Source of the DNA: Methylorubrum extorquens
Lineage (GTDB): Bacteria; Pseudomonadota; Alphaproteobacteria; Rhizobiales; Beijerinckiaceae
NCBI GenBank assembly: GCA_900234795.1
Contig: LT962688.1
Span: 5,520,001 to 5,552,000 of the forward strand
DNA length: 32,000 nucleotides
Reading direction: 5' to 3'
Shown here: one piece after another, positions 9,175-32,000 of the stretch
Layout of the letters: the number at the start of each line of letters is the position of its first letter
Position numbering within the stretch: position 1 is the stretch's first letter
Notes under the pieces: model-generated
The model's database searches: none
Told to the model about the DNA's origin: nothing
The model's input: the letters and a program-made list of their open reading frames with translations, nothing else
Translations under genes and position numbers: made by a program

Positions 9175-11487
9175 ATGCGAAGTAAACCGAAAGACTCATT
9201 CGCAGTGGTCCAACACGGCGAGGCATCATTATCATCGGACAGCATCGAACAAGATGGAGTCGAAATCAGTACGGCTGTGGCCGATGCAACCGAAGCTGTA
9301 GCGTTTATCGCAGAAGCAGCATTCTCAGAGAATGACACAAGGATACGCGGCAGCTCCGTATCGACTGACGTGCACACCTACGAATTCTCAAATATTGCAA
9401 GCGTAGAAGCCTATTTTCGTGCGGCGCTATCTTCATCACAGGCAGAAGTCGTGGCCGAAAAATCGATCACGGCAGAAACTCTGCCTATCAGAGTAACTAG
9501 TGGGTTTGCTTCGAAGGGCAGATCCTCCTTCAAGGAATTACGAGCTCAAGCCGCCGAACGCGAGCAAGCGGCTGAAGCGGGGTGTAATGAACGCCGGCAA
9601 CGCAAGCCAGCGAAGCAGAAGCGCGTCATTGCCGCCTTGCGAGCCCAAGTGGAAAATGATCCGCAATACAAATCAGCATGTGAGGAGGCGAAGCGGGTGC
9701 AGCAGCGCTACGCTGCCGCGCTTAAATCACAGTCTGACAGCTCGCCGGTAGCGCGTCGCTCCCTTACGGAAGTCGAGAATGCTGCAAATTTCGCCCAAGA
9801 TTTCTACCTTGTGAATCTCGCGGCGATAGCAACCCGGATAGAACGGTGTGGCTCTGAGGACGCCTTCGCTTGCGGCTCGGACTATTGCCCACACTGCAGA
9901 AAACGCTTCGGCGCCAGGCTCCTCGAAGATACGCAGGTGCAACTATCGCGTCGTTACGGTCAGGATTTGGAACAAGCTCGCAACGAGCTTGTTCATGTTA
10001 CCATCCTCAATGACATCGTGATCCCGGATCCGGACCTTGATAGAGATTACCTGGCGAATTTCTCCGCTTCTACAATCCGCCGTGACCATCGTGAGCTGCT
10101 AGCTTACTTGAAGAGGTGGCAGTCTGATCGCCGCAGCGCGATGTCTCACTTGCTTGCTAAGCGAAAGCTGAGCATGGAGCTTATCGAAGATTGGATGACG
10201 GCAGAAAATCGGGACAGACGGTTCTATAGTGCTGATAATCTGTACGCAGACGCTATTCAGCTCGTTAGATTCAACGAGTTAATCGAAAGCGCGCACCGTA
10301 AGTTCAAAAGAAAGCGGGACTGGCTTAAAAATCCGCCGAATGATTTTGTCTCTTGGCGCGCTGCTGAAGATGTGGATCCCTATATGTGGCAGCTAAGAAA
10401 GGCTCAGACTCTCAGCAGAGACGACATATTCAAGCTCGCGCACGGACTACAATGCCTCGACCGGCAATTCGAAGGTCTCACGAAAACTAATTTCCCCGAA
10501 AGGCTTAAGTTTAAGAGTTCGATTGAGAAGGTAATGAGGAGGGAGCGAAGTAAGCTATATCGACTCAATAAGGACTTGCCGGGAATTTCGCTCATCGGAC
10601 AGTTTGAGCTCGAGTTGGTTGATTTGCGTCATTCGATCGGGGGCACCCATCAGCATCGGACCAAATCGCAGACGTTGCGAGCGCTCGCATCGCAGCCCCG
10701 AAAGCCATTAAAGCCGCGAAAATCAGACGAGCCACCTTCAGCTGAGGCAGAGCGCCGTCGGATAAAGCAGACCGCAAAAGCTCGGCTACTCGACGAAGCA
10801 CGCGAACGGATTACAGGAAATCGCGAACTGCCTGAAAGCGACTTTCCCGGCCTGCAGTTTGCTGTCCTTCTGCATATCCACGCGTTCGTAGACCTAAACG
10901 GTCACTCTCGAGATGACCTCGAACGATGGTTGTCTGGCAAGCAGGTCGGAACACGGAAGTTCAAAGGTTTCTGGAGGCTCCCATATCAGGTGATGGTGAA
11001 GAAGTTATTCGAAGCTAAGCCTATCAACGATAGCCTTCGGGATATCAGCTTCTACCCCTTTAAGGGTCCAACGACTTTCAATTACGAAAACACGGCTCCA
11101 AAGCACGATGAGGATCTGCCAGATGAGGATCCTGCCAACTTTTCCGATGAAGCGCTCGCGCTGCTCGCATGGCTGCAGGTCGGGATCGGGCACGAGAGTC
11201 TAAGGCTTTCGATCAACTGGCCGAGCGTGGACCGAGAGCGTCGTGGCCGGAAGCCGAACAAGACCGTCATCCCAAAAGTGACTGAGGAAGAGTTCTACGA
11301 GGAGATCGAGCCGATGCTGGCTGAGCGGGGGCTGAGCCTTCCCACAGAACCTTCAGGTCAGACAGATCTGAGCGAGCTGTTCGAGGCTGAAGACATTCGA
11401 GAGGGTATGAGTAGAGGCTCGCGCAATGACGAATGTGAGGAAGAGGGCGATATTAACGACACTGCTGCATCTCCCTCCCAGGATTAG
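9175..11487 (+). CDS. large HUH-superfamily protein, Rep_1-like rolling-circle initiator/relaxase candidate
   Basis: 770-aa ORF in a ~50% GC patch. Ordered motifs: Cys cluster RIERCGSEDAFACGSDYCPHCRKR (9847-9906); motif I-like LVHVTILND (HVTIL at 9994-10008); QFELELVD; HUH motif LLHIHAFVDL (HIH at 10873-10881); Tyr motif ISFYPFKG (Tyr at 11053-11055, Y-x-x-K). Long acidic or low-complexity N- and C-terminal extensions. Confidence 0.6.
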   Translation: MRSKPKDSFAVVQHGEASLSSDSIEQDGVEISTAVADATEAVAFIAEAAFSENDTRIRGSSVSTDVHTYEFSNIASVEAYFRAALSSSQAEVVAEKSITAETLPIRVTSGFASKGRSSFKELRAQAAEREQAAEAGCNERRQRKPAKQKRVIAALRAQVENDPQYKSACEEAKRVQQRYAAALKSQSDSSPVARRSLTEVENAANFAQDFYLVNLAAIATRIERCGSEDAFACGSDYCPHCRKRFGARLLEDTQVQLSRRYGQDLEQARNELVHVTILNDIVIPDPDLDRDYLANFSASTIRRDHRELLAYLKRWQSDRRSAMSHLLAKRKLSMELIEDWMTAENRDRRFYSADNLYADAIQLVRFNELIESAHRKFKRKRDWLKNPPNDFVSWRAAEDVDPYMWQLRKAQTLSRDDIFKLAHGLQCLDRQFEGLTKTNFPERLKFKSSIEKVMRRERSKLYRLNKDLPGISLIGQFELELVDLRHSIGGTHQHRTKSQTLRALASQPRKPLKPRKSDEPPSAEAERRRIKQTAKARLLDEARERITGNRELPESDFPGLQFAVLLHIHAFVDLNGHSRDDLERWLSGKQVGTRKFKGFWRLPYQVMVKKLFEAKPINDSLRDISFYPFKGPTTFNYENTAPKHDEDLPDEDPANFSDEALALLAWLQVGIGHESLRLSINWPSVDRERRGRKPNKTVIPKVTEEEFYEEIEPMLAERGLSLPTEPSGQTDLSELFEAEDIREGMSRGSRNDECEEEGDINDTAASPSQD

Positions 11488-11731
11488 ATCCACCGGTTCT
11501 GAGAAAATATCTCGCTAACCCAACAACTTAATCTATGCCGCGGTTTGCTCTGAAGCCAAACCGATAAGGCGTGCTGTCGAATTCGCATAAAATTATGCAT
11601 CCCAGTCAAATGGGCGTGCACGCAGACCTTGCAACCAAAAAATCCGCGATGAACTCGATGCCTCGCTTTCCGCAAGCGAGAACGGCCGAGCCTTGCCTCG
11701 GGCGATCGGGTCGTCGTGCCCACCTACGAGG

Positions 11732-12058
11732 ATGACCATGACCATCGACCCTACCCGCATCGACAGAGACAGGCTGGATCAACTCCGACGCGACGTTGCC
11801 GAGAAGCACGGCATCGACCTGTACCTTCAGTATACGGAACAGCAGGCTGCCTTCCTGCTGATCCGCCCCGACGAACGGTCCGCAAGGCGTGCTGACTGCT
11901 CGACGCTGAAGCGCAAGCGCCGCGCAGGCAAGATCCCTCACGTGCCCCTAGGGAACAACTCAGTCGCCTACTTCGGGATGATGCTGTGCGATTTCCTAAT
12001 GTTCGGCGAACAGTCCGTCACGCTTTGGGGTGCAAGCGACGAGCGATCCCAACAGTAA
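11732..12058 (+). CDS. AlpA/excisionase-like HTH protein (putative Xis/regulator)
   Basis: YTEQQAAFLL....STLKRKRRAGKIPHVPLGNNSVAYFGMMLCDFL resembles the MerR-superfamily excisionase/AlpA (HTH_17) core, with an insertion. It sits directly upstream of the integrase. GAGG precedes tandem ATGs at 11732 and 11738, and the second is better spaced. Confidence 0.55.
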   Translation: MTMTIDPTRIDRDRLDQLRRDVAEKHGIDLYLQYTEQQAAFLLIRPDERSARRADCSTLKRKRRAGKIPHVPLGNNSVAYFGMMLCDFLMFGEQSVTLWGASDERSQQ

Positions 12059-12134
12059 GTCTCAGCAGACGGAGCTGCTCTTCCATTGTGAGATAGGGGA
12101 GGGCGGTGTGTGAGATTGGAGGCAGGAGGGTGAG

Positions 12135-13268
12135 GTGGGCCGATACACGAAGCGTGAGCACGTGGCGGGCAGGTTCTGGCTCGACAAACGATCAAACAGC
12201 CCTGCCTACTGTATCTGCTGGCTAGAAGGTCGCCAGGTCAGGCGCAAATCGACCGGGACCGACGACCTCGATGCGGCAATCCGGGTGCTGAAGGCGCACT
12301 ACCTGTCGGAAGATTCGCCCGAAGTCCAAGACGTCTCTCGCGTTCCGCTCGCGGATGTCGTGCAAGCGTACTACCTGCAACACGGTCAGCATCTCCCCGC
12401 GGCCAAGTGGCTGAGATACGCTGTTGCCCACTGGGTTCGCTTCTTTGGCGAGACGATTAGCGTTTGGAATGCGACCCGTCCGCCTCGGATTGAGCGGTTC
12501 ATCGATGACTTGCGGGAGCGGGGGCTAAAGCCTTCGTCGATCAATGCGGTCCTTACGGCGGGCAAGGCTGCGCTGAATCGATCGTGGAGGCGAGGCGAGC
12601 TAACCCGGCAGATCCATGTGCCTAGTATCAAGGTAACGAGAATGCAGCCAAAGGGGCGGCCGCTGTCGGTTGAAGAATGTGCAGCCTGGCTCGATGCCTC
12701 GGCCCCGCACTTCCACACCTTGTTATTCGTTTGCCTTGCTACCGGCAGCCGACCTGAGGCCGTGAAAGAACTCCGATGGGAGCAGGTCGACTTCGAGGAC
12801 GGGCTCCTCCATCTCAACCCTGAAGAGCGTGAGCAAACGAGCAAGCATAGGCCCGTCGTGAAGATGCCGCCGATTCTCATCGCGTATATGCGTCAGCTTC
12901 CACGAGAATCGGATTTCGTGGTCAGCTATCGAGGCAGGCCGGTCGACCGGTACTACACCGCGCTAGGCGAGGGTCGTAAGCGGGCCGGACTCGATGAGCG
13001 GGTCAACCTTTACAGTGCACGTCATACGGTGGCGCGCTGGATGCGTAAGGAACGTGTACCAATCGAGGAGATTTCCGGCCAGCTTGGCCACCGCGTCAGG
13101 GGATTTGCAATTACAGAGATCTACGCTGCGTACTCGCCGGACTACCAACAAAATGCGACCTCGGCGCTGGAGCGGCTGTTGCACGCGATCGCGACACGGG
13201 CACAGTCATGCCACACCCTCATTGGATCTAGTACAACCAATGTTGGGGATCGAATTCTGGCCGACTGA
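12135..13268 (+). CDS. tyrosine site-specific recombinase (phage-type integrase)
   Basis: 377-aa ORF. SAM-like N-domain (...AKWLRYAVAHWVRFFGE...FIDDLRERGLKPSSINAVLTAGKAAL). Catalytic-domain signatures LLFVCLATGSRPEAVKELRWEQVDF, YSARHTVARWM, GHRVRGFAITEIYAAY (R..H-x-x-R..Y). GTG start preceded by GGAGGCAGGAGG. Confidence 0.9.
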   Translation: MGRYTKREHVAGRFWLDKRSNSPAYCICWLEGRQVRRKSTGTDDLDAAIRVLKAHYLSEDSPEVQDVSRVPLADVVQAYYLQHGQHLPAAKWLRYAVAHWVRFFGETISVWNATRPPRIERFIDDLRERGLKPSSINAVLTAGKAALNRSWRRGELTRQIHVPSIKVTRMQPKGRPLSVEECAAWLDASAPHFHTLLFVCLATGSRPEAVKELRWEQVDFEDGLLHLNPEEREQTSKHRPVVKMPPILIAYMRQLPRESDFVVSYRGRPVDRYYTALGEGRKRAGLDERVNLYSARHTVARWMRKERVPIEEISGQLGHRVRGFAITEIYAAYSPDYQQNATSALERLLHAIATRAQSCHTLIGSSTTNVGDRILAD

Positions 13269-13353
13269 CTTGATTCTTTGGAAATTCGCTCACAACATCC
13301 ATCTTATCTGCCTCATGTGATCAGCAAATAGTGGCACGCAGTCAGAGGGTTGA

Positions 13354-13378
13354 CCGGCGGCTCCGCCGGATCGCTTTT
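13354..13378 (+). terminator. hairpin plus T-tract downstream of the integrase
   Basis: CCGGCGG-CT-CCGCCGG perfect 7-bp stem (13354-13369), followed by ATCGCTTTT. About 85 nt after the integrase stop. Confidence 0.4.
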
Positions 13379-13673
13379 ACTTGGGCAAATTCCACAGCAT
13401 CTCGTAAGCGGACGCTGTGGCGGCCGGCATCTCGGGTGTCATTCGCCAGCCCTAAGCTGACGCCGCTCGGGCGCACCCATTGCGTGATGTGCCAGGACGT
13501 CGGCCCCGGCGTGGTCGCCGATCCCGACCGGCGGGGCGGCCTGAGGATGGTCTTCACGTTGGACCCAGCGAGCCTATGTCGGCGAGCTCGGACCGGCGGC
13601 CGAGGGGGCTGCGTGGGACACTGTTGGGTACACGCGTTTCCTGCGTTTCGGTGCCTACCCGATCCCGGGCGAC

Positions 13674-14381
13674 GTGAATGGCCTTTCGGACGGAGGCCTC
13701 TACTTCAAGGCTGCCTCGCCGAAGCGCTTCGACTGTGAGGACTTCAGGGCGTTCTACGATGGGCTCGTCGCAAACAGGGAGCCGGGGGACGATGACCCGC
13801 TTTGGATGCGGCAGCACCTGCCGGTGACGCCTGAAACCTGCCGGATGCTGTTGGTCAACGACGAGCGGACCGCGTTCGGTATCTGGCGCTCCTTCGCCGA
13901 GCTCCCGGAGCCGTCAGTACTGCCGCGGGATGCGGAAGACGATGTGGGACCGGGACGCGGTTCTCGGGAGCCGGGTCATGAGGCGGCCGTGGTTCCTGTA
14001 GGCGACGGGCCTACCGTCGCAGCCGTCCGGGCCGGGCTCGTGGCAGCCTCCGGGGTCGACGCCGACGCATCGCTGCCGCTGGCGTTCCGCGCGTTCGTCC
14101 TCGACGAGCACGAGCCCCTGGCCGACCTCGCATCCCGGGCGGCGCAAGCGTTCCGCAATCCCGGGGAGCGGTCGGCCGTGCACGTCGCGACGCTGGGGTA
14201 CGCCTCGGCTGCCCGCCGCTTGCCGGCCCCTCTTATCCCGACCCTCGCGGATGGCATCCAATGGCTTGCTGAGCGGCCTTGGCACAGACCCTTGCGAGAG
14301 GCCACGCTGGAGGTCGACGGCATCGCTATGCTGGGGGTGGCGCTCGGGTCGCGCGAAAGCGACGGCACGCGCCCGGTCTAA
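13674..14381 (+). CDS. hypothetical protein (possibly 5'-truncated)
   Basis: 235-aa high-GC ORF with a GTG start. The same frame stays open and protein-like upstream to 13545 (AAWDTVGYTRFLRFGAYPIPGD) with no start codon. No family recognised. Confidence 0.4.
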   Translation: MNGLSDGGLYFKAASPKRFDCEDFRAFYDGLVANREPGDDDPLWMRQHLPVTPETCRMLLVNDERTAFGIWRSFAELPEPSVLPRDAEDDVGPGRGSREPGHEAAVVPVGDGPTVAAVRAGLVAASGVDADASLPLAFRAFVLDEHEPLADLASRAAQAFRNPGERSAVHVATLGYASAARRLPAPLIPTLADGIQWLAERPWHRPLREATLEVDGIAMLGVALGSRESDGTRPV

Positions 14382-14447
14382 GCTAGGACGTTGTTTTTGT
14401 TGAGGTTGTTCCCGGCGGGTGCGCCGCTGTAGAGCGTGCTCGCGCGT

Positions 14448-15668
14448 TCAGTGGTGACGTCTCCGCTTCACCGCACCTCGAAGAATGCGGGCGAGCTCAT
14501 CAGCCGAGTAGGGCTTGCGCAGAACCTCGAACCCATGCGCGTCATCCTGCGCAAGCACGTGGCTGTAGCCGGACGTCAGAACCACTGGCAGGTCCGGATG
14601 GATGTCTCTGAGCCTTCTGGCGAGCTCGATCCCTCCTATGCCGGGCATCACCACGTCGGAGAACACCGCATCAAAGTTGGACGCCGACTCCTCAACAGCG
14701 TCGAGCGCTGCTTCCGCGTTCTGGGTCCAGACAGGGCTGTGACCGAGGTCCTCCAAGATCTGCGTGCAGAAGCGTCCAACCTCCAGATTGTCCTCCACTA
14801 CCAGGATGCACAGACCCAAATCACCCGCAGTCTCTTCCGGCTGATTCGCCGCGGGGGTACCCATGTTTTTTGGGAGGTCGACCTGCGGCAGGTAGAGGAT
14901 GAAGGTCGTGCCCTCGCCCAGGGTACTGCGCACGTCAACGTCACCGCCCGACTGCTTGGCAAAGCCGATGACTTGGCTCAGGCCGAGCCCTGTACCCTTG
15001 CCAATCTCCTTCGTCGTGAAGAACGGCTCAAAGATGCGCGTAAGGTCGGCCTGAGCGATGCCCCTGCCGGTGTCCGTGACCGACACGGCCACGAACCGGC
15101 CGGAGGAGGCACCGGCGTGCCCGCGGATCGGTGGCATCGGGGTCCCAGCATTGAGGTGCAGGGTGAGCCTGCCCTCGCCGTCCATCGCGTCCCGCGCGTT
15201 TACTGCGATGTTGACCAGCGCCGTCTCGAACTGGCTGGCGTCGGCCCGAACGTAGCAGTGCTCGCCGGGCAAGTCGGTGACGACCCGAATGCGAGCGCCA
15301 GTCACCGCGTCGAGCATGTCCGAGATGGCCCGAAGACGCTCCGAAACCTCGAACACCTCGGGCCTGAGGGGCTGCCGCCGCGCGAAGGCCAACAGCTGGC
15401 TGGTCAGCTTCGCCGCCCGGTCGACCGTATCCGATACCGCGTTCAGATAGCGACGCTTGCGCTCCTCCGCCAAGTCGGGCCGGCGCAGGAACTCGACGGA
15501 GGAGCGGATGATGGTCAGGAGGTTGTTGAAGTCGTGTGCCACGCCGCCTGTGAGCTGACCGATGGCCTCCAGCTTCTGCGATTGCCGCAGCGCTTCCTCT
15601 GCCAGGCGCTGCTCCGTGATGTCGCGGCCGAAGCCGTACAGCACCCCATCCTCGGGAACGTCGTGCAC
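14448..15668 (-). pseudogene. hybrid sensor histidine kinase/response regulator, 5'-truncated (sensor domains lost)
   Basis: The ORF opens in the last strand of a PAS domain (GVLYGFGRDITEQRLAEEALRQSQKLEAIGQLTGGVAHDFNNLL = H-box). It continues through HATPase_c (NARDAM, DTGRGI, GKGTGLGLS) and a REC domain (ILVVEDN...DVVMPG...KPY). A stop lies immediately upstream (D*IDSHGVHDV), and only an alternative GTG start is available. Confidence 0.75.
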
Positions 15669-17038: not shown

Positions 17039-17735
17039 CGCCGCCTCCCGCCATACCGCCCGAGAGGCAAGCGCCGGGTGGCACTGGGTGTTCCGTTCCC
17101 CTTTGCAGCGGCTCTGCCGGGTCGGAACTCTGTCATTCATCGGTCCTTCTCCCTATCGAGGCAAAACAAGGGAGGCGTTTCGCGCCCGATTAGAGCACTG
17201 CGCAAATCAGAGTCGTAGGCTCTCATCCTCCCGACCATACCCTGGGCAAGGGTCACAAGCCTGAAATGCCGTCTGGCCTCCCTTGCCCGGTGCGGTGAAG
17301 CCGGACAATGATCGAAGGTCGCCGCACAATTTATGGTAGCTTTGTTCGCTGTCGGCGCTTCGGCACACCTTTGAGACTTATCGACTGCCGACGCGTACCC
17401 CGTGTCTCCTAGCCCATGATCGGCCTCCAACGCCTCATGGTGGCAATGACATCACTGCCGTCAATCATGCTTGAGCTTGAGCTTCACCTTGGCCCCATGA
17501 CCTTCGAAAGGTACGATGCGCATGAATATTAGGAAGTTTAGCACCTTTTTCACAGAAATATATTATAAGATAATATCAGGCAAATAAGTCCGCAGGGGTT
17601 TTAAATAAAATCTCGTGCTACCATTTAACTACAGCGAAGCGATCTGAATTAATCGCTTTGCGGCCGAATTTGAATGGGTTGCGTTCTCATCTTCTTCCGG
17701 TGCCTGTATCAAATTATATTTTGAGGGTGGTTCAA

Positions 17736-18341
17736 ATGTCGAACAATCAGAACGCCAGCGTCGGCAAGCAGAATGGCCAGGACGCTCGCATCGCTGAAGC
17801 AGCCAAAGCCAATTCCACCCACGCAGCTGATACAGGCGCCGAGCATGGCAAGCGGTTTGCTGACGCAGCGCAGGAGGGCTTCAACAAGACGGTCGATTTG
17901 CGCGAGAAGGCAACTGAAGCCACAAAGCAGGTGATGCAGAACGGCGTCGACACGGCCACGCAGCAGGCTCGCGAGGCGGCCGATCGCTTCTCAAAGACGC
18001 TCGGCTTCTCAGGCGAGGACAGTGAGCGTCTGGCGCGTCAGTCGAAGCAAAACATCGAAGCCGTCACTCGTTGCGGCACGGTCCTCAGCCAAGCGTTCCA
18101 GGATACCTCACGCAACCTGTTCGATCTCGGTCAGAAGGAGTTCCAGCGAAATCTGGAGGGCCTAACTAAGCTGACCCGGGCTAAGTCGGTTCAGGAGTTC
18201 GCGGCCATTCAGAGCGATCTGATGCGCGAGGGTTTGCAGAACATGGTTCAGGACAGCAGGGCAATTACCGAAACATCCGCCCGAGCAGTTGAGGAGGCGA
18301 GCAAGACCTTCGCCAGTGTCACTGTCGCTCCGGCACGCTGA
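17736..18341 (+). CDS. phasin-family protein (PHA granule-associated)
   Basis: 201 aa, Ala/Gln/Glu-rich and all-helical. The C-terminal half (NLFDLGQKEFQRNLEGLTKLTRAKSVQEFAAIQSDLMREGLQNMVQDSRAITETSARAVEEASKTF) is typical of Phasin_2 proteins. GAGGGTGG SD upstream of ATG 17736. Long AT-rich leader (17430-17735). Confidence 0.75.
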   Translation: MSNNQNASVGKQNGQDARIAEAAKANSTHAADTGAEHGKRFADAAQEGFNKTVDLREKATEATKQVMQNGVDTATQQAREAADRFSKTLGFSGEDSERLARQSKQNIEAVTRCGTVLSQAFQDTSRNLFDLGQKEFQRNLEGLTKLTRAKSVQEFAAIQSDLMREGLQNMVQDSRAITETSARAVEEASKTFASVTVAPAR

Positions 18342-23172: not shown

Positions 23173-24531
23173 ATGAAGCAGACGTCCGGGCCGGCACGGA
23201 AGCCGGCAGAAGCCGTGATCAAGGACATCCGTCGCGCGACACGCCGACAGTTCTCGGCCGAGGAGAAGATCCGCATCGTGCTGGAAGGCCTGCGCGGTGA
23301 AGACAGCATCGCCGAGCTGTGCCGGCGTGAGGGCATCGCCAGTTCGATGTACTACGGCTGGTCCAAGGAGTTTCTGGAGGCCGGCAAGAAGCGGCTGGCC
23401 GGCGACACGGCCCGTGCCGCGACCGCTGATGAGGTCCAAGATCTGCGCCGCGAGACGGGTGCGCTGAAGGAACTCGTGGCCGACCTCGTCCTGGAGAACC
23501 GCCTGCTGAAAAAGAGAAAGCATGACCGCGGCTGGGGGCGACGAGGCATGAGGTACCCGGCCTCTGAGAAGCTGGAGATCATCCAGCTGGTCGAGCAGTC
23601 CCACCTGCCGGTGCGCGCTACCCTGGAGAAGCTCGCCATCCCGCGCGCCACTTTCTACCGCTGGTATGACGCTTTCCAGTGCGGCGGCCCCGAGGCATTG
23701 GCGGATCGTCCCTCGCGGCCCAGCCGGGTCTGGAATCGTCTGCCCGCAGAGATCCGCGAGCAAATCGTCGCCCTCGCGCTGGAGCAGCCGGAGCTCAGCC
23801 CGCGCGAGTTGGCGGTGCGCTTCACCGACGAGCGGCGCTACTTCGTCTCGGAGGCAACCGTCTACCGCTTGCTCAAAGCCCAGGACCTGATCACCAGCCC
23901 GGCTTACATCGTCGTCAAAGCCGCCGATGAGTTCCACGACAAGACGACCGCGCCCAACCAGCTCTGGCAGACGGACTTCACCTACCTGAAGGTCGTGGGA
24001 TGGGGTTGGTACTACCTCTCGACCGTGCTCGACGACTTCTCGCGCTACATCGTGGCGTGGAAGCTGTGCACGACGATGCAGGTCGGCGACGTCACCGCCA
24101 CGCTCGACCTTGCGCTGGCGGCGGCCGGGCTCGACCACGTGCAGGTGGCGCATCGGCCACGGCTACTCACCGACAACGGATCGAGCTACGTCGCGGGTGA
24201 TCTGGCCGACTGGCTCGGCAGTCGGGGTATGACCCATATCCGCGCGGTGCGCCGCGCCATCCGCAGACGCAGGGCAAGATCGAGCGCTGGCACCAGACGC
24301 TCAAGAACCGCATCCTGCTCGAACACGCCTACCTGCCCGGCGAATTGGAGGCGCGGGTTGCCGCCTTTGTCGAGCACTACAACCACGCTCGGGCTCACGA
24401 GAGCCTGGGCAATCTCACCCCTGCCGACGTCTACTTCGGCCGCGGCGAGACGATCTTACGTGAACGGGCGCGGATCAAGCGCCAGACCCCTCATGGATCG
24501 CCGCTTGCGCCATCACGCGCAGGCTGCCTAA
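23173..24531 (+). pseudogene. IS3-family transposase (OrfA-like HTH plus OrfB rve core in one frame) with two frameshifts near the 3' end
   Basis: OrfA-like region: FSAEEKIRIVLEGLRGEDSIAELCRREGIASSMYYGWSKEFLEAGKKRL...LENRLLKK. OrfB-like region: YPASEKLEIIQLVEQSHLPVRATLEKLAIPRATFYRWYD...NQLWQTDFTYLKVVGWGWYYLSTVLDDFSRYIVAWKL...LLTDNGSSYVAGDL. Conserved GAPRHPQTQGKIERWHQTLKNRILLEHAYLPGELEARVAAFVEHYNHARAHESLGNLTPADVYFGRGETILRERARIKRQT is in another frame (about 24250-24487). The first frame resumes for LMDRRLRHHAQAA*. Confidence 0.8.
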
Positions 24532-24645
24532 CCTCTTGTAACTTGATCCCACCTTCGCCGGGTATGCTCTTCGGCGCGGTGGCGGGTGAGAGACCGTTAG
24601 CCTCTGGGGCCACCAAGCCCGCAAGTGAGCCAGGGTCCTCGCCCG

Positions 24646-25665
24646 CCGTTCCATCGAACCCGAACAGTCGCTTGGGCCGCTCAACGCGAAGCCCGCTTGC
24701 GCAAGGATGGGATCAGATGGACGCTCCTGTTGTTGGGATCGATGTGGCCCGTGACCGCCTCGATATTCATGTTCATCCCTCTGGAGCGAACTTCGCCGTT
24801 GATCGTACGACCGAGGGTGTGGAGCAGCTGTGCGAACGCCTCCGGCCCCTGAAGCCGAAGCTCGTCGTCCTGGAGGCAACCGGCGGTTTGGAAGCCATGG
24901 TGGCACGTGCTCTCACCACCTGGAGGCTACCAGCCGTGATCGTGAACCCAGCACAGGTCCGTGCTTTCGCTCACGCCTTGGGCCAACGCGCCAAGACCGA
25001 CCGCATCGACGCCACCGTGATCGCCCGGTTCGCGGCGGCCACCAACCCACCCGTTCGCGCTCGGGCCGATGCCGAGACTCAGGCCTTGGCTGATCTCGTC
25101 ACAAGACGCCGTCAGATCGTAGGACTGATCGCGTCCGAGCGGCAGCGAGCGAGCCAAGCTCCACCGTGCATTCGAGACAGCGTCCGGCGCGTCATAGAGG
25201 CGTTGGAGCAGGAGCAGAGTGTGATCGACCGCTCGATCGATGCAGAGGTAGACCGGTCGCTTGAATGGCGCAGGAAGGAGACCCTCCTGACCTCCGTTCC
25301 TGGTGTTGGACCGACGATCGCACGAACCCTGATCGCGGAGCTGCCTGAGCTTGGAAGCCTCAACCGGAAGCAAGTCGCCGCGCTGGTCGGCTTGGCCCCT
25401 TGGACGCGGCAATCCGGTCAGTGGCGAGGGAGGAGCTTCATTGCAGGCGGCCGCGCACCTGTTCGCACGGCGCTGTTCATGGGGGCCATGGTGGCCAGCC
25501 GTCACAATGCCGCGCTGAAAACCTTCCGCGACCGGCTCATCGCAGCCGGTAAGCCCAAGCTCGTTGCCCTGATTGCCACCGCTCGGAAGCTGATCACCAT
25601 CCTCAACGCCATCCTGAGAGACGGAACGCCATGGCAACCCGCTTGACCAGCAAGACAGTCGCTCA
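24646..25665 (+). mobile_element. IS110-family element, copy A (IS110-type layout: long 5' end, about 19 bp after the stop); true left end lies somewhere in 24532-24646
   Basis: Near-identical inverted copy at 30981-32000. Identity ends at 25665 (...CAAGACAGTCGCTCA). The left limit cannot be set because copy B runs off the window. The element sits between the IS3 orfB stop (24531) and the IS3 IRR (25683). Confidence 0.8.
24717..25646 (+). CDS. IS110-family transposase/recombinase, intact (copy A)
   Basis: MDAPVVGIDVARDRLDIHV...LVVLEATGGLE...AKTDRIDATVIARFA (DEDD N-domain) and VPGVGPTIARTLIAELPELGSLNRKQVAALVGLAPWTRQSGQWRGRSFIAGGRAPVRTALFMGAMVA (C-domain). 309 aa. AAGGATGGG SD. Confidence 0.9.
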   Translation: MDAPVVGIDVARDRLDIHVHPSGANFAVDRTTEGVEQLCERLRPLKPKLVVLEATGGLEAMVARALTTWRLPAVIVNPAQVRAFAHALGQRAKTDRIDATVIARFAAATNPPVRARADAETQALADLVTRRRQIVGLIASERQRASQAPPCIRDSVRRVIEALEQEQSVIDRSIDAEVDRSLEWRRKETLLTSVPGVGPTIARTLIAELPELGSLNRKQVAALVGLAPWTRQSGQWRGRSFIAGGRAPVRTALFMGAMVASRHNAALKTFRDRLIAAGKPKLVALIATARKLITILNAILRDGTPWQPA

Positions 25666-28119: not shown

Positions 28120-30420
28120 TCACCCGCCCCGCACGGGCCGGAACGCGACAACCCGATCTGCTCCGTCCTCGTGCTTGAGGCAGTCCGCGACCGCGTTAGC
28201 GAGATCGGCTTGTTGGTAGGGCTTGTTCAGCCGAGGCAGCGCAAGGTGGCTGTCCTGCACCACCTCCGCATAGCCCGTCGCAAGGAGGATCGGGATGCGC
28301 GGCCACTCAGCCCTGATCGCCTCCGCGAGGTGCTGGCCCGTCATGCCCGGCATGGCGTAATCTGTGATTACGAGATCGACCTTGCGACCCCTTCGCAAGA
28401 GGGTCAGCGCCTCCTCTCCGGACGAGGCTTCGAGTACCACATGCCCGAGGTCGTCCAGCATCGCGGCTGTGTTCGCCAGGACAAGGGCGTCATCATCGAT
28501 CGCCAGCACTGTCAGCGAGCGCGTCGCTGCGCCAACCTTCTGGTCTGCGTCATTCGCGACCTCGTCGGTTTCCTCTCTGGCCTCGGCAACTGGAAGCCAA
28601 ACCTCAGCGGTCGTGCCCGCGCCAAGGCGGCTCTTGAGGAACAGGGCTCCACCAGACTGCTCGGCAAGGCCATGCACCATGGACAGCCCGAGGCCCGTTC
28701 CCTTACCCACGCCCTTCGTCGTGAAGAACGGCTCCATCGCTTGCCGCAGGGTGGCCTCGTTCATGCCCGTGCCCGTGTCCGATACCCAGAGGCAGACGTA
28801 CTTGCCTGGCGAGAGACCGCGTACCTGATCTGCTCCAACCGTCTGCTCGCGCGCGCCAATCGTGATGGTGCCGCCATTGGGCATGGCGTCCCTCGCGTTC
28901 ACGACGAGGTTCAACAGCGCCAGCTCAAGCTGGTTGGCGTCCGCATAGGCGTCGGGCAATCCCAGAGGGAAGTGCGTCTCGATCTGCACCCGCGGGCCGA
29001 TGGAACGGCGAAGCAGGTCCTCCATGCCTCGCACAAGATCAGGGGGACAGACTGGCTCGGGCCTCAGACTCTGCCGCCGTGCAAAGGACAGCATGCGCTG
29101 CGTCAACGAGGCTCCACGCTCAGCCCCTTGGATCGCGTGCTCGACAAGGCGCGTGAGCCTGGGGTCGTCGGGCAGGCGCTTGCGCAGGAGATCGAGATTG
29201 CCAATCACCACGGCAAGCAGGTTGTTGAAGTCGTGCGCGATGCCGCCGGTGAGGCGTCCAACAGCCTCCATCTTCTGGGCCTGCCGCAGCGCCTCCTCCG
29301 CACGTCGTCTGGCGGTCACATCGACGATGCCGCCAAGCGCGCGCAGGAACCCGCCCTGCGCGTCGCGCTCGACTTGCGAGGATAGGAGAACGTCAAGGGG
29401 CTCGCCGCGTTGGGTCACGAAGCGGTACTCGGCGTCGCGAAGCACGCCGCTCGCCAGGAGCTTGGGCCAATCCTCCTGAACGCGGCGGCGCGCTGATTCC
29501 TCATTCATGAAGTTGATCAAGGGGCGACCCACAACGCTCTCGCGCGGGTAGCCGAGAAGGTCGAGCCAAGCGTCGCTGACCTCCTCGATACGGCCCTCGG
29601 CATCGAGGGCGTGCAGAGGCAGCGGCGTCTTGCGGTAGAGCGCCCGGAACTGCTCCTCACTCCGGCGCAAGGCTACGGCCTCTCGTTCAGCGAGCACAGC
29701 AAAGCGGCGATCGAACATGGCCGCGATTAGCGAGAGGAACAGGATCAGGAACGTGGCGGCGGCGACGGCAAGGGCGAGGTTCGTCTGGCCAATGCTGGCA
29801 TTGCCATGCCCGCCGTCAGTCACCTCGTGAGCGGTGAAGGAGGCAGCATACATGGCCGTGTAGTGCATGCCCGAGACCGCAATGCCCATCACACCTGCGG
29901 CCACGAGCTTTTGCACCAGCCCCGTGTTCTTGAAGGCTAGCCAGAGCGCGATGGTCGAGGCTCCGACGGCGATCAGGATCGAGACGGCCACCCACAGCGC
30001 GTCGTAGCGCAGGGAGGCGGGCACATGCATTGCGGCCATGCCGGTGTAGTGCATGGCCGCAATGCCGATACCCATGAGAAGGCCGCTTGCAGCGAGAGCG
30101 AAGCGGCTCCTCCTAGGCCGGTTCACGACGGCAAAGCCGATCCCGGTGACCGCGACAGGCACGATCAGCGAGAGGAGCGTGAGGCTGACGTCGTAGTGCG
30201 CCTCCATGCCCGGCATGCTGAAGGCGAGCATGGCGACGAAGTGCATGGCCCAGATGCCACCACCCATGGCGAGGGCTGCAGTCGCGAGCCATGCATGCGC
30301 CGCCCAGCCCGTTGCTGCACGGATGCGGCCTGCGAGATCAAGAGCGGTGTAGGACGCGACCGTCGCGATGAGGACCGAGAGGGTGACGAGGGTGCTGTCG
30401 TGGGCTCCTGACACGGACAT
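28120..30420 (-). CDS. MHYT-domain / PAS hybrid sensor histidine kinase-response regulator
   Basis: 766 aa. Three MHYT-type motifs in a 7-TM N-domain (WAMHFVAM, AAMHYTGM, SGMHYTAM). PAS (PLHALDAEGRIEEVSDAWLDLLGYPRESVVGRPL...). H-box GGIAHDFNNLL. HATPase_c (NARDAM, DTGTGM, GKGTGLGLS). REC (VLAIDDD...DYAMPGM...KPY). Confidence 0.9.
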   Translation of the reverse strand: MSVSGAHDSTLVTLSVLIATVASYTALDLAGRIRAATGWAAHAWLATAALAMGGGIWAMHFVAMLAFSMPGMEAHYDVSLTLLSLIVPVAVTGIGFAVVNRPRRSRFALAASGLLMGIGIAAMHYTGMAAMHVPASLRYDALWVAVSILIAVGASTIALWLAFKNTGLVQKLVAAGVMGIAVSGMHYTAMYAASFTAHEVTDGGHGNASIGQTNLALAVAAATFLILFLSLIAAMFDRRFAVLAEREAVALRRSEEQFRALYRKTPLPLHALDAEGRIEEVSDAWLDLLGYPRESVVGRPLINFMNEESARRRVQEDWPKLLASGVLRDAEYRFVTQRGEPLDVLLSSQVERDAQGGFLRALGGIVDVTARRRAEEALRQAQKMEAVGRLTGGIAHDFNNLLAVVIGNLDLLRKRLPDDPRLTRLVEHAIQGAERGASLTQRMLSFARRQSLRPEPVCPPDLVRGMEDLLRRSIGPRVQIETHFPLGLPDAYADANQLELALLNLVVNARDAMPNGGTITIGAREQTVGADQVRGLSPGKYVCLWVSDTGTGMNEATLRQAMEPFFTTKGVGKGTGLGLSMVHGLAEQSGGALFLKSRLGAGTTAEVWLPVAEAREETDEVANDADQKVGAATRSLTVLAIDDDALVLANTAAMLDDLGHVVLEASSGEEALTLLRRGRKVDLVITDYAMPGMTGQHLAEAIRAEWPRIPILLATGYAEVVQDSHLALPRLNKPYQQADLANAVADCLKHEDGADRVVAFRPVRGG

Positions 30421-30980: not shown

Positions 30981-32000
30981 TGAGCGACTGTCTTGCTGGT
31001 CAAGCGGGTTGCCATGGCGTTCCGTCTCTCAGGATGGCGTTGAGGATGGTGATCAGCTTCCGAGCGGTGGCAATCAGGGCAACGAGCTTGGGCTTACCGG
31101 CTGCGATGAGCCGGTCCCGGAAGGTTTTCAGCGCGGCATTGTGACGGCTGGCCACCATGGCCCCCATGAACAGCGCCGTGCGAACAGGTGCGCGGCCGCC
31201 TGCAATGAAGCTCCTCCCTCGCCACTGACCGGATTGCCGCGTCCAAGGGGCCAAGCCGACCAGCGCGGCGACTTGCTTCCGGTTGAGGCTTCCAAGCTCA
31301 GGCAGCTCCGCGATCAGGGTTCGTGCGATCGTCGGTCCAACACCAGGAACGGAGGTCAGGAGGGTCTCCTTCCTGCGCCATTCAAGCGACCGGTCTACCT
31401 CTGCATCGATCGAGCGGTCGATCACACTCTGCTCCTGCTCCAACGCCTCTATGACGCGCCGGACGCTGTCTCGAATGCACGGTGGAGCTTGGCTCGCTCG
31501 CTGCCGCTCGGACGCGATCAGTCCTACGATCTGACGGCGTCTTGTGACGAGATCAGCCAAGGCCTGAGTCTCGGCATCGGCCCGAGCGCGAACGGGTGGG
31601 TTGGTGGCCGCCGCGAACCGGGCGATCACGGTGGCGTCGATGCGGTCGGTCTTGGCGCGTTGGCCCAAGGCGTGAGCGAAAGCACGGACCTGTGCTGGGT
31701 TCACGATCACGGCTGGTAGCCTCCAGGTGGTGAGAGCACGTGCCACCATGGCTTCCAAACCGCCGGTTGCCTCCAGGACGACGAGCTTCGGCTTCAGGGG
31801 CCGGAGGCGTTCGCACAGCTGCTCCACACCCTCTGTCGTACGGTCAACGGCGAAGTTCGCTCCAGAGGGATGAACGTGAATATCGAGGCGGTCTCGGGCG
31901 ACATCGATCCCGACAACAGGAGCGTCCATCTGATCCCATCCTTGCGCAAGCGGGCTTCGCGTTGAGCGGCCCAAGCGACTGTTCGGGTTCGATGGAACGG
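30981..32000 (-). mobile_element. IS110-family element, copy B (inverted relative to copy A; truncated by the window edge)
   Basis: The reverse complement of 30981-32000 matches 24646-25665 except for 7 single-base differences. The flank beyond the right end (CGTAGCGTCC in element orientation) differs from that of copy A (ACCCAGGTGG). Confidence 0.85.
31000..31929 (-). CDS. IS110-family transposase/recombinase, intact (copy B)
   Basis: The 309-aa product is identical to copy A in the supplied translations. Confidence 0.9.
   Translation of the reverse strand: MDAPVVGIDVARDRLDIHVHPSGANFAVDRTTEGVEQLCERLRPLKPKLVVLEATGGLEAMVARALTTWRLPAVIVNPAQVRAFAHALGQRAKTDRIDATVIARFAAATNPPVRARADAETQALADLVTRRRQIVGLIASERQRASQAPPCIRDSVRRVIEALEQEQSVIDRSIDAEVDRSLEWRRKETLLTSVPGVGPTIARTLIAELPELGSLNRKQVAALVGLAPWTRQSGQWRGRSFIAGGRAPVRTALFMGAMVASRHNAALKTFRDRLIAAGKPKLVALIATARKLITILNAILRDGTPWQPA

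Follow-up and report, generated by a model that had tools for sequence, protein, structure and literature searches.

The Rep-Like Gene and Its Motifs

The window analyzed here is a 32,000-nucleotide stretch of Methylorubrum extorquens DNA (GenBank assembly GCA_900234795.1, contig LT962688.1, positions 5,520,001 to 5,552,000 of the forward strand), and the subject of this work is a gene within it that we call the Rep-like gene. It occupies positions 9175-11487 on the + strand, encodes 770 amino acids (aa), and lies in a patch of about 52-56% G+C within surrounding DNA of about 65% G+C. The assigned ATG start codon is supported by the sequence GGTGGCAT, which stands immediately 5′ of it and is conserved in four relatives. 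An earlier note, made from the sequence alone, had described in this protein a complete Rep_1-like motif series within a large, charged scaffold, and had proposed a divergent HUH enzyme that could be a replication initiator, a relaxase, or a transposase. Its placement of the motifs held: C225-R244 is encoded at 9847-9906, H567/H569 at 10873-10881, and Y627-K630 at 11053-11064, and the segment LVHVTILND begins at 9988. The features of the protein are given below in window positions, together with their conservation in two alignments: A1, which holds 23 long homologs with identity down to 45%, and A2, which holds 48 compact relatives that are 21-41% identical to its first sequence.

9175..11487, + strand: Rep-like protein of the putative HUH type (open reading frame, ORF; 23 homologs; overall dN/dS, the ratio of nonsynonymous to synonymous substitution rates, 0.24-0.28)
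9847..9897, + strand: four-Cys cluster C225, C233, C238, C241, a putative zinc site (invariant in A1; three invariant and one at least 90% conserved in A2; pairs with the Rep_1 Cys cluster)
9988..10020, + strand: strand beta1 or motif 1, LVHVTILNDIV (T276, I277, and L278 invariant in A1; predicted strand E272-282; pairs with Rep_1 FLTLT)
10603..10632, + strand: strand beta2, FELELVDLRH, with E478/E480 as candidate third metal ligand (F477, E478, E480, and L481 invariant in A1; E-x-E at least 90% conserved in A2; predicted strand E472-483)
10867..10899, + strand: HUH strand, LLHIHAFVDLN, with H567 and H569 (in A1, H569 invariant and H567 in 22 of 23; both invariant in A2; predicted strand E562-573; pairs with Rep_1 HFHVL)
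11044..11064, + strand: Tyr motif, ISFYPFK, with Y627 and K630 (both invariant in A1; in A2, Tyr invariant and Lys at least 90% conserved; pairs with Rep_1 KYsgK)

Y627 is 58 residues C-terminal of H569, at the end of the predicted helix H617-625, which is the order of the Rep class.

Homologs and Residue Conservation

The 23 long homologs were obtained by a word-indexed search and come from Methylobacterium/Methylorubrum or from metagenome contigs. None of them carries a Pfam domain and all are annotated as "hypothetical"; a structural or regulatory annotation, which the earlier note had named as an argument against its proposal, is therefore absent among them. A1 is variable over its first ~200 and its last ~30 residues. 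An exhaustive profile search of 1.84 billion representative proteins yielded 63 family members, of which about 50 are compact, with lengths of 270-355 aa, and a few are additional long forms (P0024-P0028). A scan of genome contigs gave matches in five loci, all of them Methylobacterium. P0026 (MDG2570761.1), a 550-aa partial long-form homolog on a 1.6-kb contig, was deposited as Vibrio parahaemolyticus, the sole non-Methylobacterium name in the family, and could be either contamination or a genuine gammaproteobacterial occurrence. No prior description of the Rep-like family was found in the literature.

The compact proteins match the window protein (the query) in separate stretches, one holding the Cys cluster and the motif-1 strand and the other the HUH/Tyr region, and the four motif blocks are present in them as well, without the long spacers. 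Three Cys, the H-x-H, and the Tyr are the only invariant columns of A2; the fourth Cys, a Thr, a Gly, the E-x-E, and the Lys are conserved in at least 90% of its sequences. Such a pattern is characteristic of an active site accompanied by a metal-binding cluster. The motifs of the earlier note are thus genuine, the His-x-His and the Tyr being conserved among the 23 long and 48 compact homologs that were aligned.

Relationship to Rep_1 and Microviridae Initiators

We compared the family by hhalign with a Rep_1 profile of 13 sequences, taken from PLSDB "protein rep" genes, and with a VP4 profile of nine Microviridae sequences. A2 matched the Rep_1 profile with P = 5.6e-5 and a score of 42.0 over 178 colinear columns, with the motifs in register: the first Cys, the C-x4-C-x2-C, FLTLT with VTIL, HFHVL with VHxHxl, the next strand ("vdir"), and KYsxK with SYPFK. 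The reversed Rep_1 profile scored 26.1 over 13 columns, and the highest score against 40 column-shuffled Rep_1 profiles was 21.9. As a positive control, Rep_1 against VP4 gave P = 3.2e-5 over 106 columns, and by these two P-values the family is about as distant from Rep_1 as Rep_1 is from VP4. Comparisons of A2 with single sequences were not significant, either for pC194 RepA (P = 0.064, with the right residues aligned) or for Chp2 VP4 (P = 0.17); the block order in pC194 RepA is the same as in the query.

With Rep_1 (PF01446, the pC194/pUB110 type) the family shares the succession of four Cys, motif-1 strand (xxTLT in Rep_1, VTIL here), Glu strand, H-U-H, short strand, and a helix ending in Y-x-x-K. 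The size of Rep_1 proteins (~300 aa) matches that of the compact relatives, whereas the query is two to three times larger and has two insertions and two extensions. The query also differs in falling below every Pfam and NCBIfam threshold, in being chromosomal and part of an integrative element, in having no match among PLSDB plasmids, and in having no conserved CTTGATA-type nick site; moreover, the acidic residue that pC194 RepA carries four positions before the Tyr is not conserved in the query family. Judged by these comparisons, the Rep-like family is a rare, previously unnamed sister of Rep_1 and not a member of the Pfam Rep_1 family, and the long form is an unusual, expanded variant of it.

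The Microviridae initiators (VP4 and phiX174 gpA; PHA00330) are the sole named fold matches of the compact model described below; they share a Cys cluster ahead of motif 1 with the family, and this part is correctly aligned. They differ in that the profile match between A2 and VP4 falls short of significance (P = 0.039, 37 columns), the TM-scores (template modeling scores) are only ~0.3-0.46, and the query gene is not in a phage genome. In addition, the catalytic Tyr of phiX174 gpA are two in number, with a spacing of three residues, whereas a single Tyr is invariant in the Rep-like family.

Fold Evidence

An AlphaFold2 (AF2) model of the compact relative P0032, built with A2, reached a predicted local distance difference test score (pLDDT) of 90 and a predicted TM-score (pTM) of 0.87. 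Its elements follow in the order beta1(VTIL)-alpha-beta2(FELE)-alpha-alpha-beta3(HxH)-alpha-beta4-alpha-alpha, with the Tyr at the end of the last helix (H236-256), and this is the secondary-structure order expected of Rep-class HUH domains. Foldseek comparison of the model with a library of predicted viral structures returned two matches at E ≤ 0.001, the best with E = 1.8e-4, probability 1.0, and TM-scores of 0.44/0.46. Only two entries carried names, and these matches were weak, at E ~0.09 and 0.15: "Putative replication protein VP4" and "Replication initiator protein [Microvirus mar14]". When the compact-family profile was run against PDB sequences, the single match was an antibody, which is spurious. 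We regard the modeled fold as supportive but not decisive for the HUH assignment. The 2026 Rep-Arvir family was rejected as the identity of the protein; its fold is Rep_trans-like, not HUH. Residue conservation, the controlled match to the Rep_1 profile, and the fold matches to Microviridae initiators together speak for the proposal of a divergent Rep_1-like HUH enzyme, and the HUH assignment is supported at the superfamily level.

Anatomy of the Long Form and Selection

Aligned with each other by hhalign, A1 and A2 matched with a probability of 100% (E = 1.6e-45), and residues 218-681 of the query spanned the entire compact protein. The long form thus consists of a compact core (218-681) to which an N-terminal extension, two insertions, and a C-terminal tail are added, and its link to Rep_1 is a transitive one, through A2. 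The segments are given below with dN/dS values computed against four close relatives.

9175..9825, + strand: N-terminal extension, residues 1-217, acidic/Ser-rich, variable, and mostly predicted to be disordered (absent from compact relatives; pLDDT below 50 for residues 1-71 and 83-142; dN/dS 0.5-0.8 for residues 1-99 and 0.24-0.39 for residues 100-217)
10033..10515, + strand: insertion 1, residues ~287-447, ~160 aa, five helices, present in the long form only (no hhalign counterpart in the compact family; helices H304-428; dN/dS 0.15-0.24)
Residues 448-508: core segment with the E-x-E (dN/dS 0.02-0.10)
10699..10833, + strand: insertion 2, residues ~509-553, ~45 aa, basic, one long helix before the HUH strand (unaligned to the compact family; helix H523-547; dN/dS 0.03-0.37)
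Residues 554-681: core segment with the HUH and the Tyr (dN/dS 0.08-0.14)
11218..11484, + strand: C-terminal acidic tail, residues 682-770 (outside the compact core; variable; dN/dS 0.34-0.63)

Insertion 1 falls between the motif-1 strand and the next helix, ahead of FELELVD. The large size and the charged termini had been recognized in the earlier note, but this helical segment, the largest of the extra ones, had not been singled out; and the basic insertion it placed before the HUH is indeed there and basic, but its net length is ~45 aa rather than ~75. The AF2 model of the query has a mean pLDDT of only 61, with low confidence in the last ~45 residues and in most of the N-terminal extension except a helical part at ~147-224.

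Purifying selection acts on every segment of the protein but the first ~100 residues, which are nearly unconstrained. From these per-segment values it follows that the gene is functional, that the insertions matter, and that the extreme N-terminus is nearly free to vary. They also bear on the idea that the protein has kept HUH-like residues and lost the nuclease role, so that it would, for instance, regulate by binding DNA or serve the element as a scaffold, and its real function would reside in the large insertions. The very unusual size and the two large, constrained insertions fit such a role, as do a negative origin search and the failure to retrieve a solved HUH structure. Nevertheless, the strongest purifying selection falls on the segments with the E-x-E, H-x-H, and Tyr (dN/dS 0.02-0.14), and the invariant columns of the divergent compact family are precisely the active-site-like residues, for which reason we hold the loss of nuclease activity to be quite improbable.

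The Rep-Like Gene Within an Integrative Element

The Rep-like gene is part of an integrative element whose features are the following.

2453..13437: full extent of the integrative element, ~11 kb (from blastn with L043, L040, and L042, independent loci whose homology breaks at the same two points)
2751-3182, + strand: RNase H gene at the left end of the element (Pfam RNase_H, E = 1.6e-39; kept in the M. extorquens copy, L043 3264-3695)
3830..4315, − strand: remnant of a small serine resolvase, truncated at the deletion 4270/4271 (no more than 64 aa can be aligned with the resolvases of relatives, which have 198 aa)
4748..5407, + strand: MerR-family regulator, a conserved member of the module (Pfam MerR_1, E = 1.3e-16; found 5′ of the Rep-like gene in every long-form locus, also where the recombinase is of the serine type)
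6469..8668: secondary insertion with an IS110-family transposase (6984-8033) and an insertion sequence (IS) fragment, separating the MerR gene from the Rep-like gene (absent from L043; Pfam DEDD_Tnp_IS110 / Transposase_20)
11693..12058, + strand: small conserved ORF of 121 aa between the Rep-like gene and the integrase (64-71% identical orthologs in the same position)
12135..13268, + strand: tyrosine integrase (Pfam Phage_integrase, E = 5.4e-11; phrog_1 integrase, E = 3.6e-42)

The window element is 92-97% identical to L043, a Methylorubrum extorquens chromosome, and the conserved order of the element is RNase H, a 155-aa ORF, small serine resolvase, TM2 protein, MerR, Rep-like gene, an ORF of ~110-160 aa, and tyrosine integrase. 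Integrase orthologs, ~80% identical, lie 3′ of every Methylobacterium homolog except that of L025, and between these loci the identity of the integrase (~80%) compares with ~53% for the Rep-like protein. In the distant long relatives L036 and L037 the resolvase, MerR, small ORFs, and Rep-like gene are kept, a large serine recombinase replaces the tyrosine integrase, and the cargo consists of defense-type or methyltransferase genes. Compact relatives adjoin integrases and a resolvase, with 7-deazaguanine-pathway or other cargo. The cargo of the related elements (L036 4804-7759; L037 2726-4567; L038 6665-9246) comprises CTD10/DUF2326/MC6 conflict-system genes, an N6_N4 DNA methyltransferase, or QueD/FolE/QueC, which suggests that these elements shuttle defense or DNA-modification modules. 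The deletion at 4270/4271 has cost the window copy 1.3-2.3 kb relative to L040, L042, and L043; the TM2-domain gene is gone, as is the N-terminal portion of the resolvase, and mobility or the resolution of multimers may be impaired in this copy. An intact copy is carried, for example, by M. extorquens CP077638 (514-537 kb). RNase H might act on RNA primers or R-loops when the element replicates.

This setting also allows us to weigh another possible identity of the protein, namely an HUH transposase of the IS91/ISCR or Helitron type that moves the surrounding DNA by rolling-circle transposition. IS91 transposases have a Cys-rich domain N-terminal to the HUH domain, and Zn_Tnp_IS91 is the only recurrent weak Pfam match of the family, found in four of the 23 long members and two of the 48 compact ones; its E-values (~0.08-0.09) are below significance, and no Pfam family, RepSA-type included, matches the query at E ≤ 10. 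The IS91/ISCR enzymes are Y2 transposases, whereas the Rep-like family gives no Y2_Tnp match and has a single invariant Tyr, in the compact proteins as well. Moreover, the gene holds a fixed position in a larger syntenic module with its own integrase, its linkage to integrases is consistently single-copy, and the borders of the element are 6.7 kb and 2 kb away from it. A transposase of this kind is therefore very improbable.

The gene order has a parallel in another group of elements. The actinomycete integrative and conjugative elements (AICEs), such as pSAM2, have in RepSA an HUH initiator with kinship to the pC194/phiX174 groups that is required once the element has been excised; it is encoded directly 5′ of xis-int, and versions with a tyrosine and with a serine recombinase both exist (PMC3218068). 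Compared by gene order and description, the window has the same rep-xis-int arrangement: the Rep-like gene stands directly 5′ of the small ORF and the integrase, within an element whose ends are at 2453 and 13437. The small ORF has no family match and is excisionase-like by position only, so its identity as an excisionase is putative. Unlike the AICEs, the window element has an alphaproteobacterial host and an ORF without a recognizable family in the "xis" position, and no FtsK/SpoIIIE-type Tra gene was found in it or in the loci of the relatives. A single + strand terminator-like site lies 3′ of the Rep-like gene, past the integrase (13354-13369), in a total of such sites that is at chance level.

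Non-Coding Regions and Origin Search

Two non-coding features flank the Rep-like gene.

8831..9174: conserved AT-rich non-coding region 5′ of the Rep-like gene (~79% identity across four relatives; TTGAC boxes; a GGAGC-N5-GCTCC palindrome; a promoter-like site at 8886-8914)
11574..11586: conserved box CTGTCGAATTCGC with the palindrome CGAATTCG, a candidate cis site (in five relatives, the block of highest conservation within the stretch that separates the Rep-like gene from the small ORF)

The first may be a promoter or operator, or conceivably an origin. A related, overlapping 11-mer, CGTGCTGTCGA, occurs at 4619-4629, 5′ of the MerR gene, and the CTGTCGAATTCGC/CGTGCTGTCGA box may be a shared operator or a Rep-binding site. 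The elements in 8831-9174 and the CTGTCGAATTCGC box may be operators rather than origins. No conservation of non-coding sequence was found beyond the close relatives.

Proposed Role of the Rep-Like Protein

We consider it probable, with some reserve, that the Rep-like protein is an HUH nicking enzyme that replicates or mobilizes the excised element. The neighboring integrase would excise the element as a circle, on which the Rep-like protein would then start rolling-circle replication (RCR), so that the circle could be maintained or amplified. In the nicking reaction, H567 and H569, probably with E478 or E480, would hold a divalent metal, and Y627 would attack a specific phosphodiester in the origin and become covalently joined to the 5′ end; the 3′-OH left by the nick would prime leading-strand synthesis. 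Zinc binding is the probable function of the four-Cys cluster, which would also help to keep the DNA in place, and the N-terminal extension and the two insertions may serve origin binding, oligomerization, or the recruitment of host factors.

The same nick could serve transfer as well, and this leads to a real alternative: a non-canonical relaxase that nicks the origin of transfer (oriT) of the excised element, which a co-resident conjugative element would then mobilize as an integrative mobilizable element (IME), with replication secondary. The conserved residues and the Rep_1 profile match would be expected of it too, the HUH chemistry being the same, and the element itself lacks conjugation genes. 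In the majority of streptococcal IMEs the putative relaxase resembles RCR initiators (Rep_2, PHA00330, Viral_Rep, MobT), with no coupling protein in 35 of 118; a dual role in replication and transfer has been proposed for these proteins, and Rep_1 initiators can act as relaxases in ICEBs1-mediated mobilization (PMC5704250). The window element resembles these IMEs in having an RCR-initiator-type protein in a small integrative element without conjugation genes; it differs in the protein families, in the host phylum, and in having no TcpA-type coupling protein. Against a relaxase, we saw no coupling protein, relaxosome accessory factor, or oriT-like sequence in any locus, the query matched no MOB relaxase family in Pfam and NCBIfam scans, and the closest detectable relatives are replication initiators. 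The two roles are compatible with each other, and of the two we consider relaxase as the primary one to be unlikely.

Several results weigh against a nicking enzyme for the excised element, whether it replicates or mobilizes it. Neither the query nor the family profile has a significant match in Pfam, NCBIfam, PADLOC, PHROGs, or PDB sequences; Pfam Rep_1 in particular is matched by neither the query nor the 23 long homologs, and by only one of the 48 compact members, weakly (E = 0.16). A1 alone does not match the Rep_1 profile significantly (P = 0.073), because its insertions break the alignment, and the match of A2 to VP4 is confined to the Cys cluster and motif 1. Structural comparison is similarly restrained: the viral fold matches have modest TM-scores and their top entries are unnamed, and Foldseek against the PDB retrieved no solved HUH structure, giving only noise for the full-length query model and generic ferredoxin-like folds for the compact model (best E = 0.064). 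By tblastn the family was absent from PLSDB (72,556 plasmids) and the query from GenBank phages, and no autonomous replicon is known to use the family. No origin was found; the pC194-type CTTGATA nick motif is not conserved, neither of the two candidate regions resembles the pC194 nick site, and a cross-locus search for shared 11-mers over diverse loci returned only noise. Finally, the window copy of the element is partly decayed, with its IS insertion and truncated resolvase.

If the protein is active, it would represent an unannotated and very rare branch of the HUH rolling-circle enzymes, and a set of "hypothetical" genes would gain a function. The small integrative islands of Alphaproteobacteria and their metagenomic relatives, with their defense and DNA-modification cargo, would then own a replication or mobilization module, an architecture described so far chiefly from actinomycete AICEs and from IMEs of Firmicutes. 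The long form would be a natural example of domain insertion tolerated by the HUH core, which is relevant to HUH tags for protein-DNA conjugation. A more far-reaching proposal, which we put forward as speculative and rather doubtful, is that these proteins found a family of HUH initiators serving a class of small integrative elements in Proteobacteria, elements that, once excised, replicate autonomously and would be the Gram-negative equivalent of the AICEs. In the long form, the 160-aa helical domain set into the catalytic fold and the basic helix would then equip the core for a further task, for example melting the origin, loading a helicase, or coupling replication to the neighboring recombinase.

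Element Ends and Other Features of the Window

At the ends of the element, a search for attachment (att) sites found no perfect direct repeat of at least 10 bp; the sole candidate is an imperfect one that pairs GCCGGCCATTATGGGT, immediately beyond the left end at 2429-2445, with GGCCGGCATCTCGGGT at 13422-13437. Beyond the right end, the ~940 bp at 13438-14376 are replaced by 178 bp in L042, after which an identity of 98.5% resumes at 14377-15634, which indicates that the insertion site is the same in the window and L042 and that the junction is variable. The junction region contains a 235-aa ORF (13674-14381) without a family. There are three IS110-family transposase genes in the 32 kb, namely the one within 6469-8668 and those at 24345-25646 (+) and 31000-31974 (−), as well as a Mutator-family transposase fragment at 5436-5909 (−). 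A phasin gene lies at 17658-18341, and the − strand of 28120-30420 encodes a hybrid sensor kinase of 766 aa (MHYT repeats, PAS, HisKA, HATPase_c, and a receiver domain), which is unrelated to the Rep-like protein despite its similar size.

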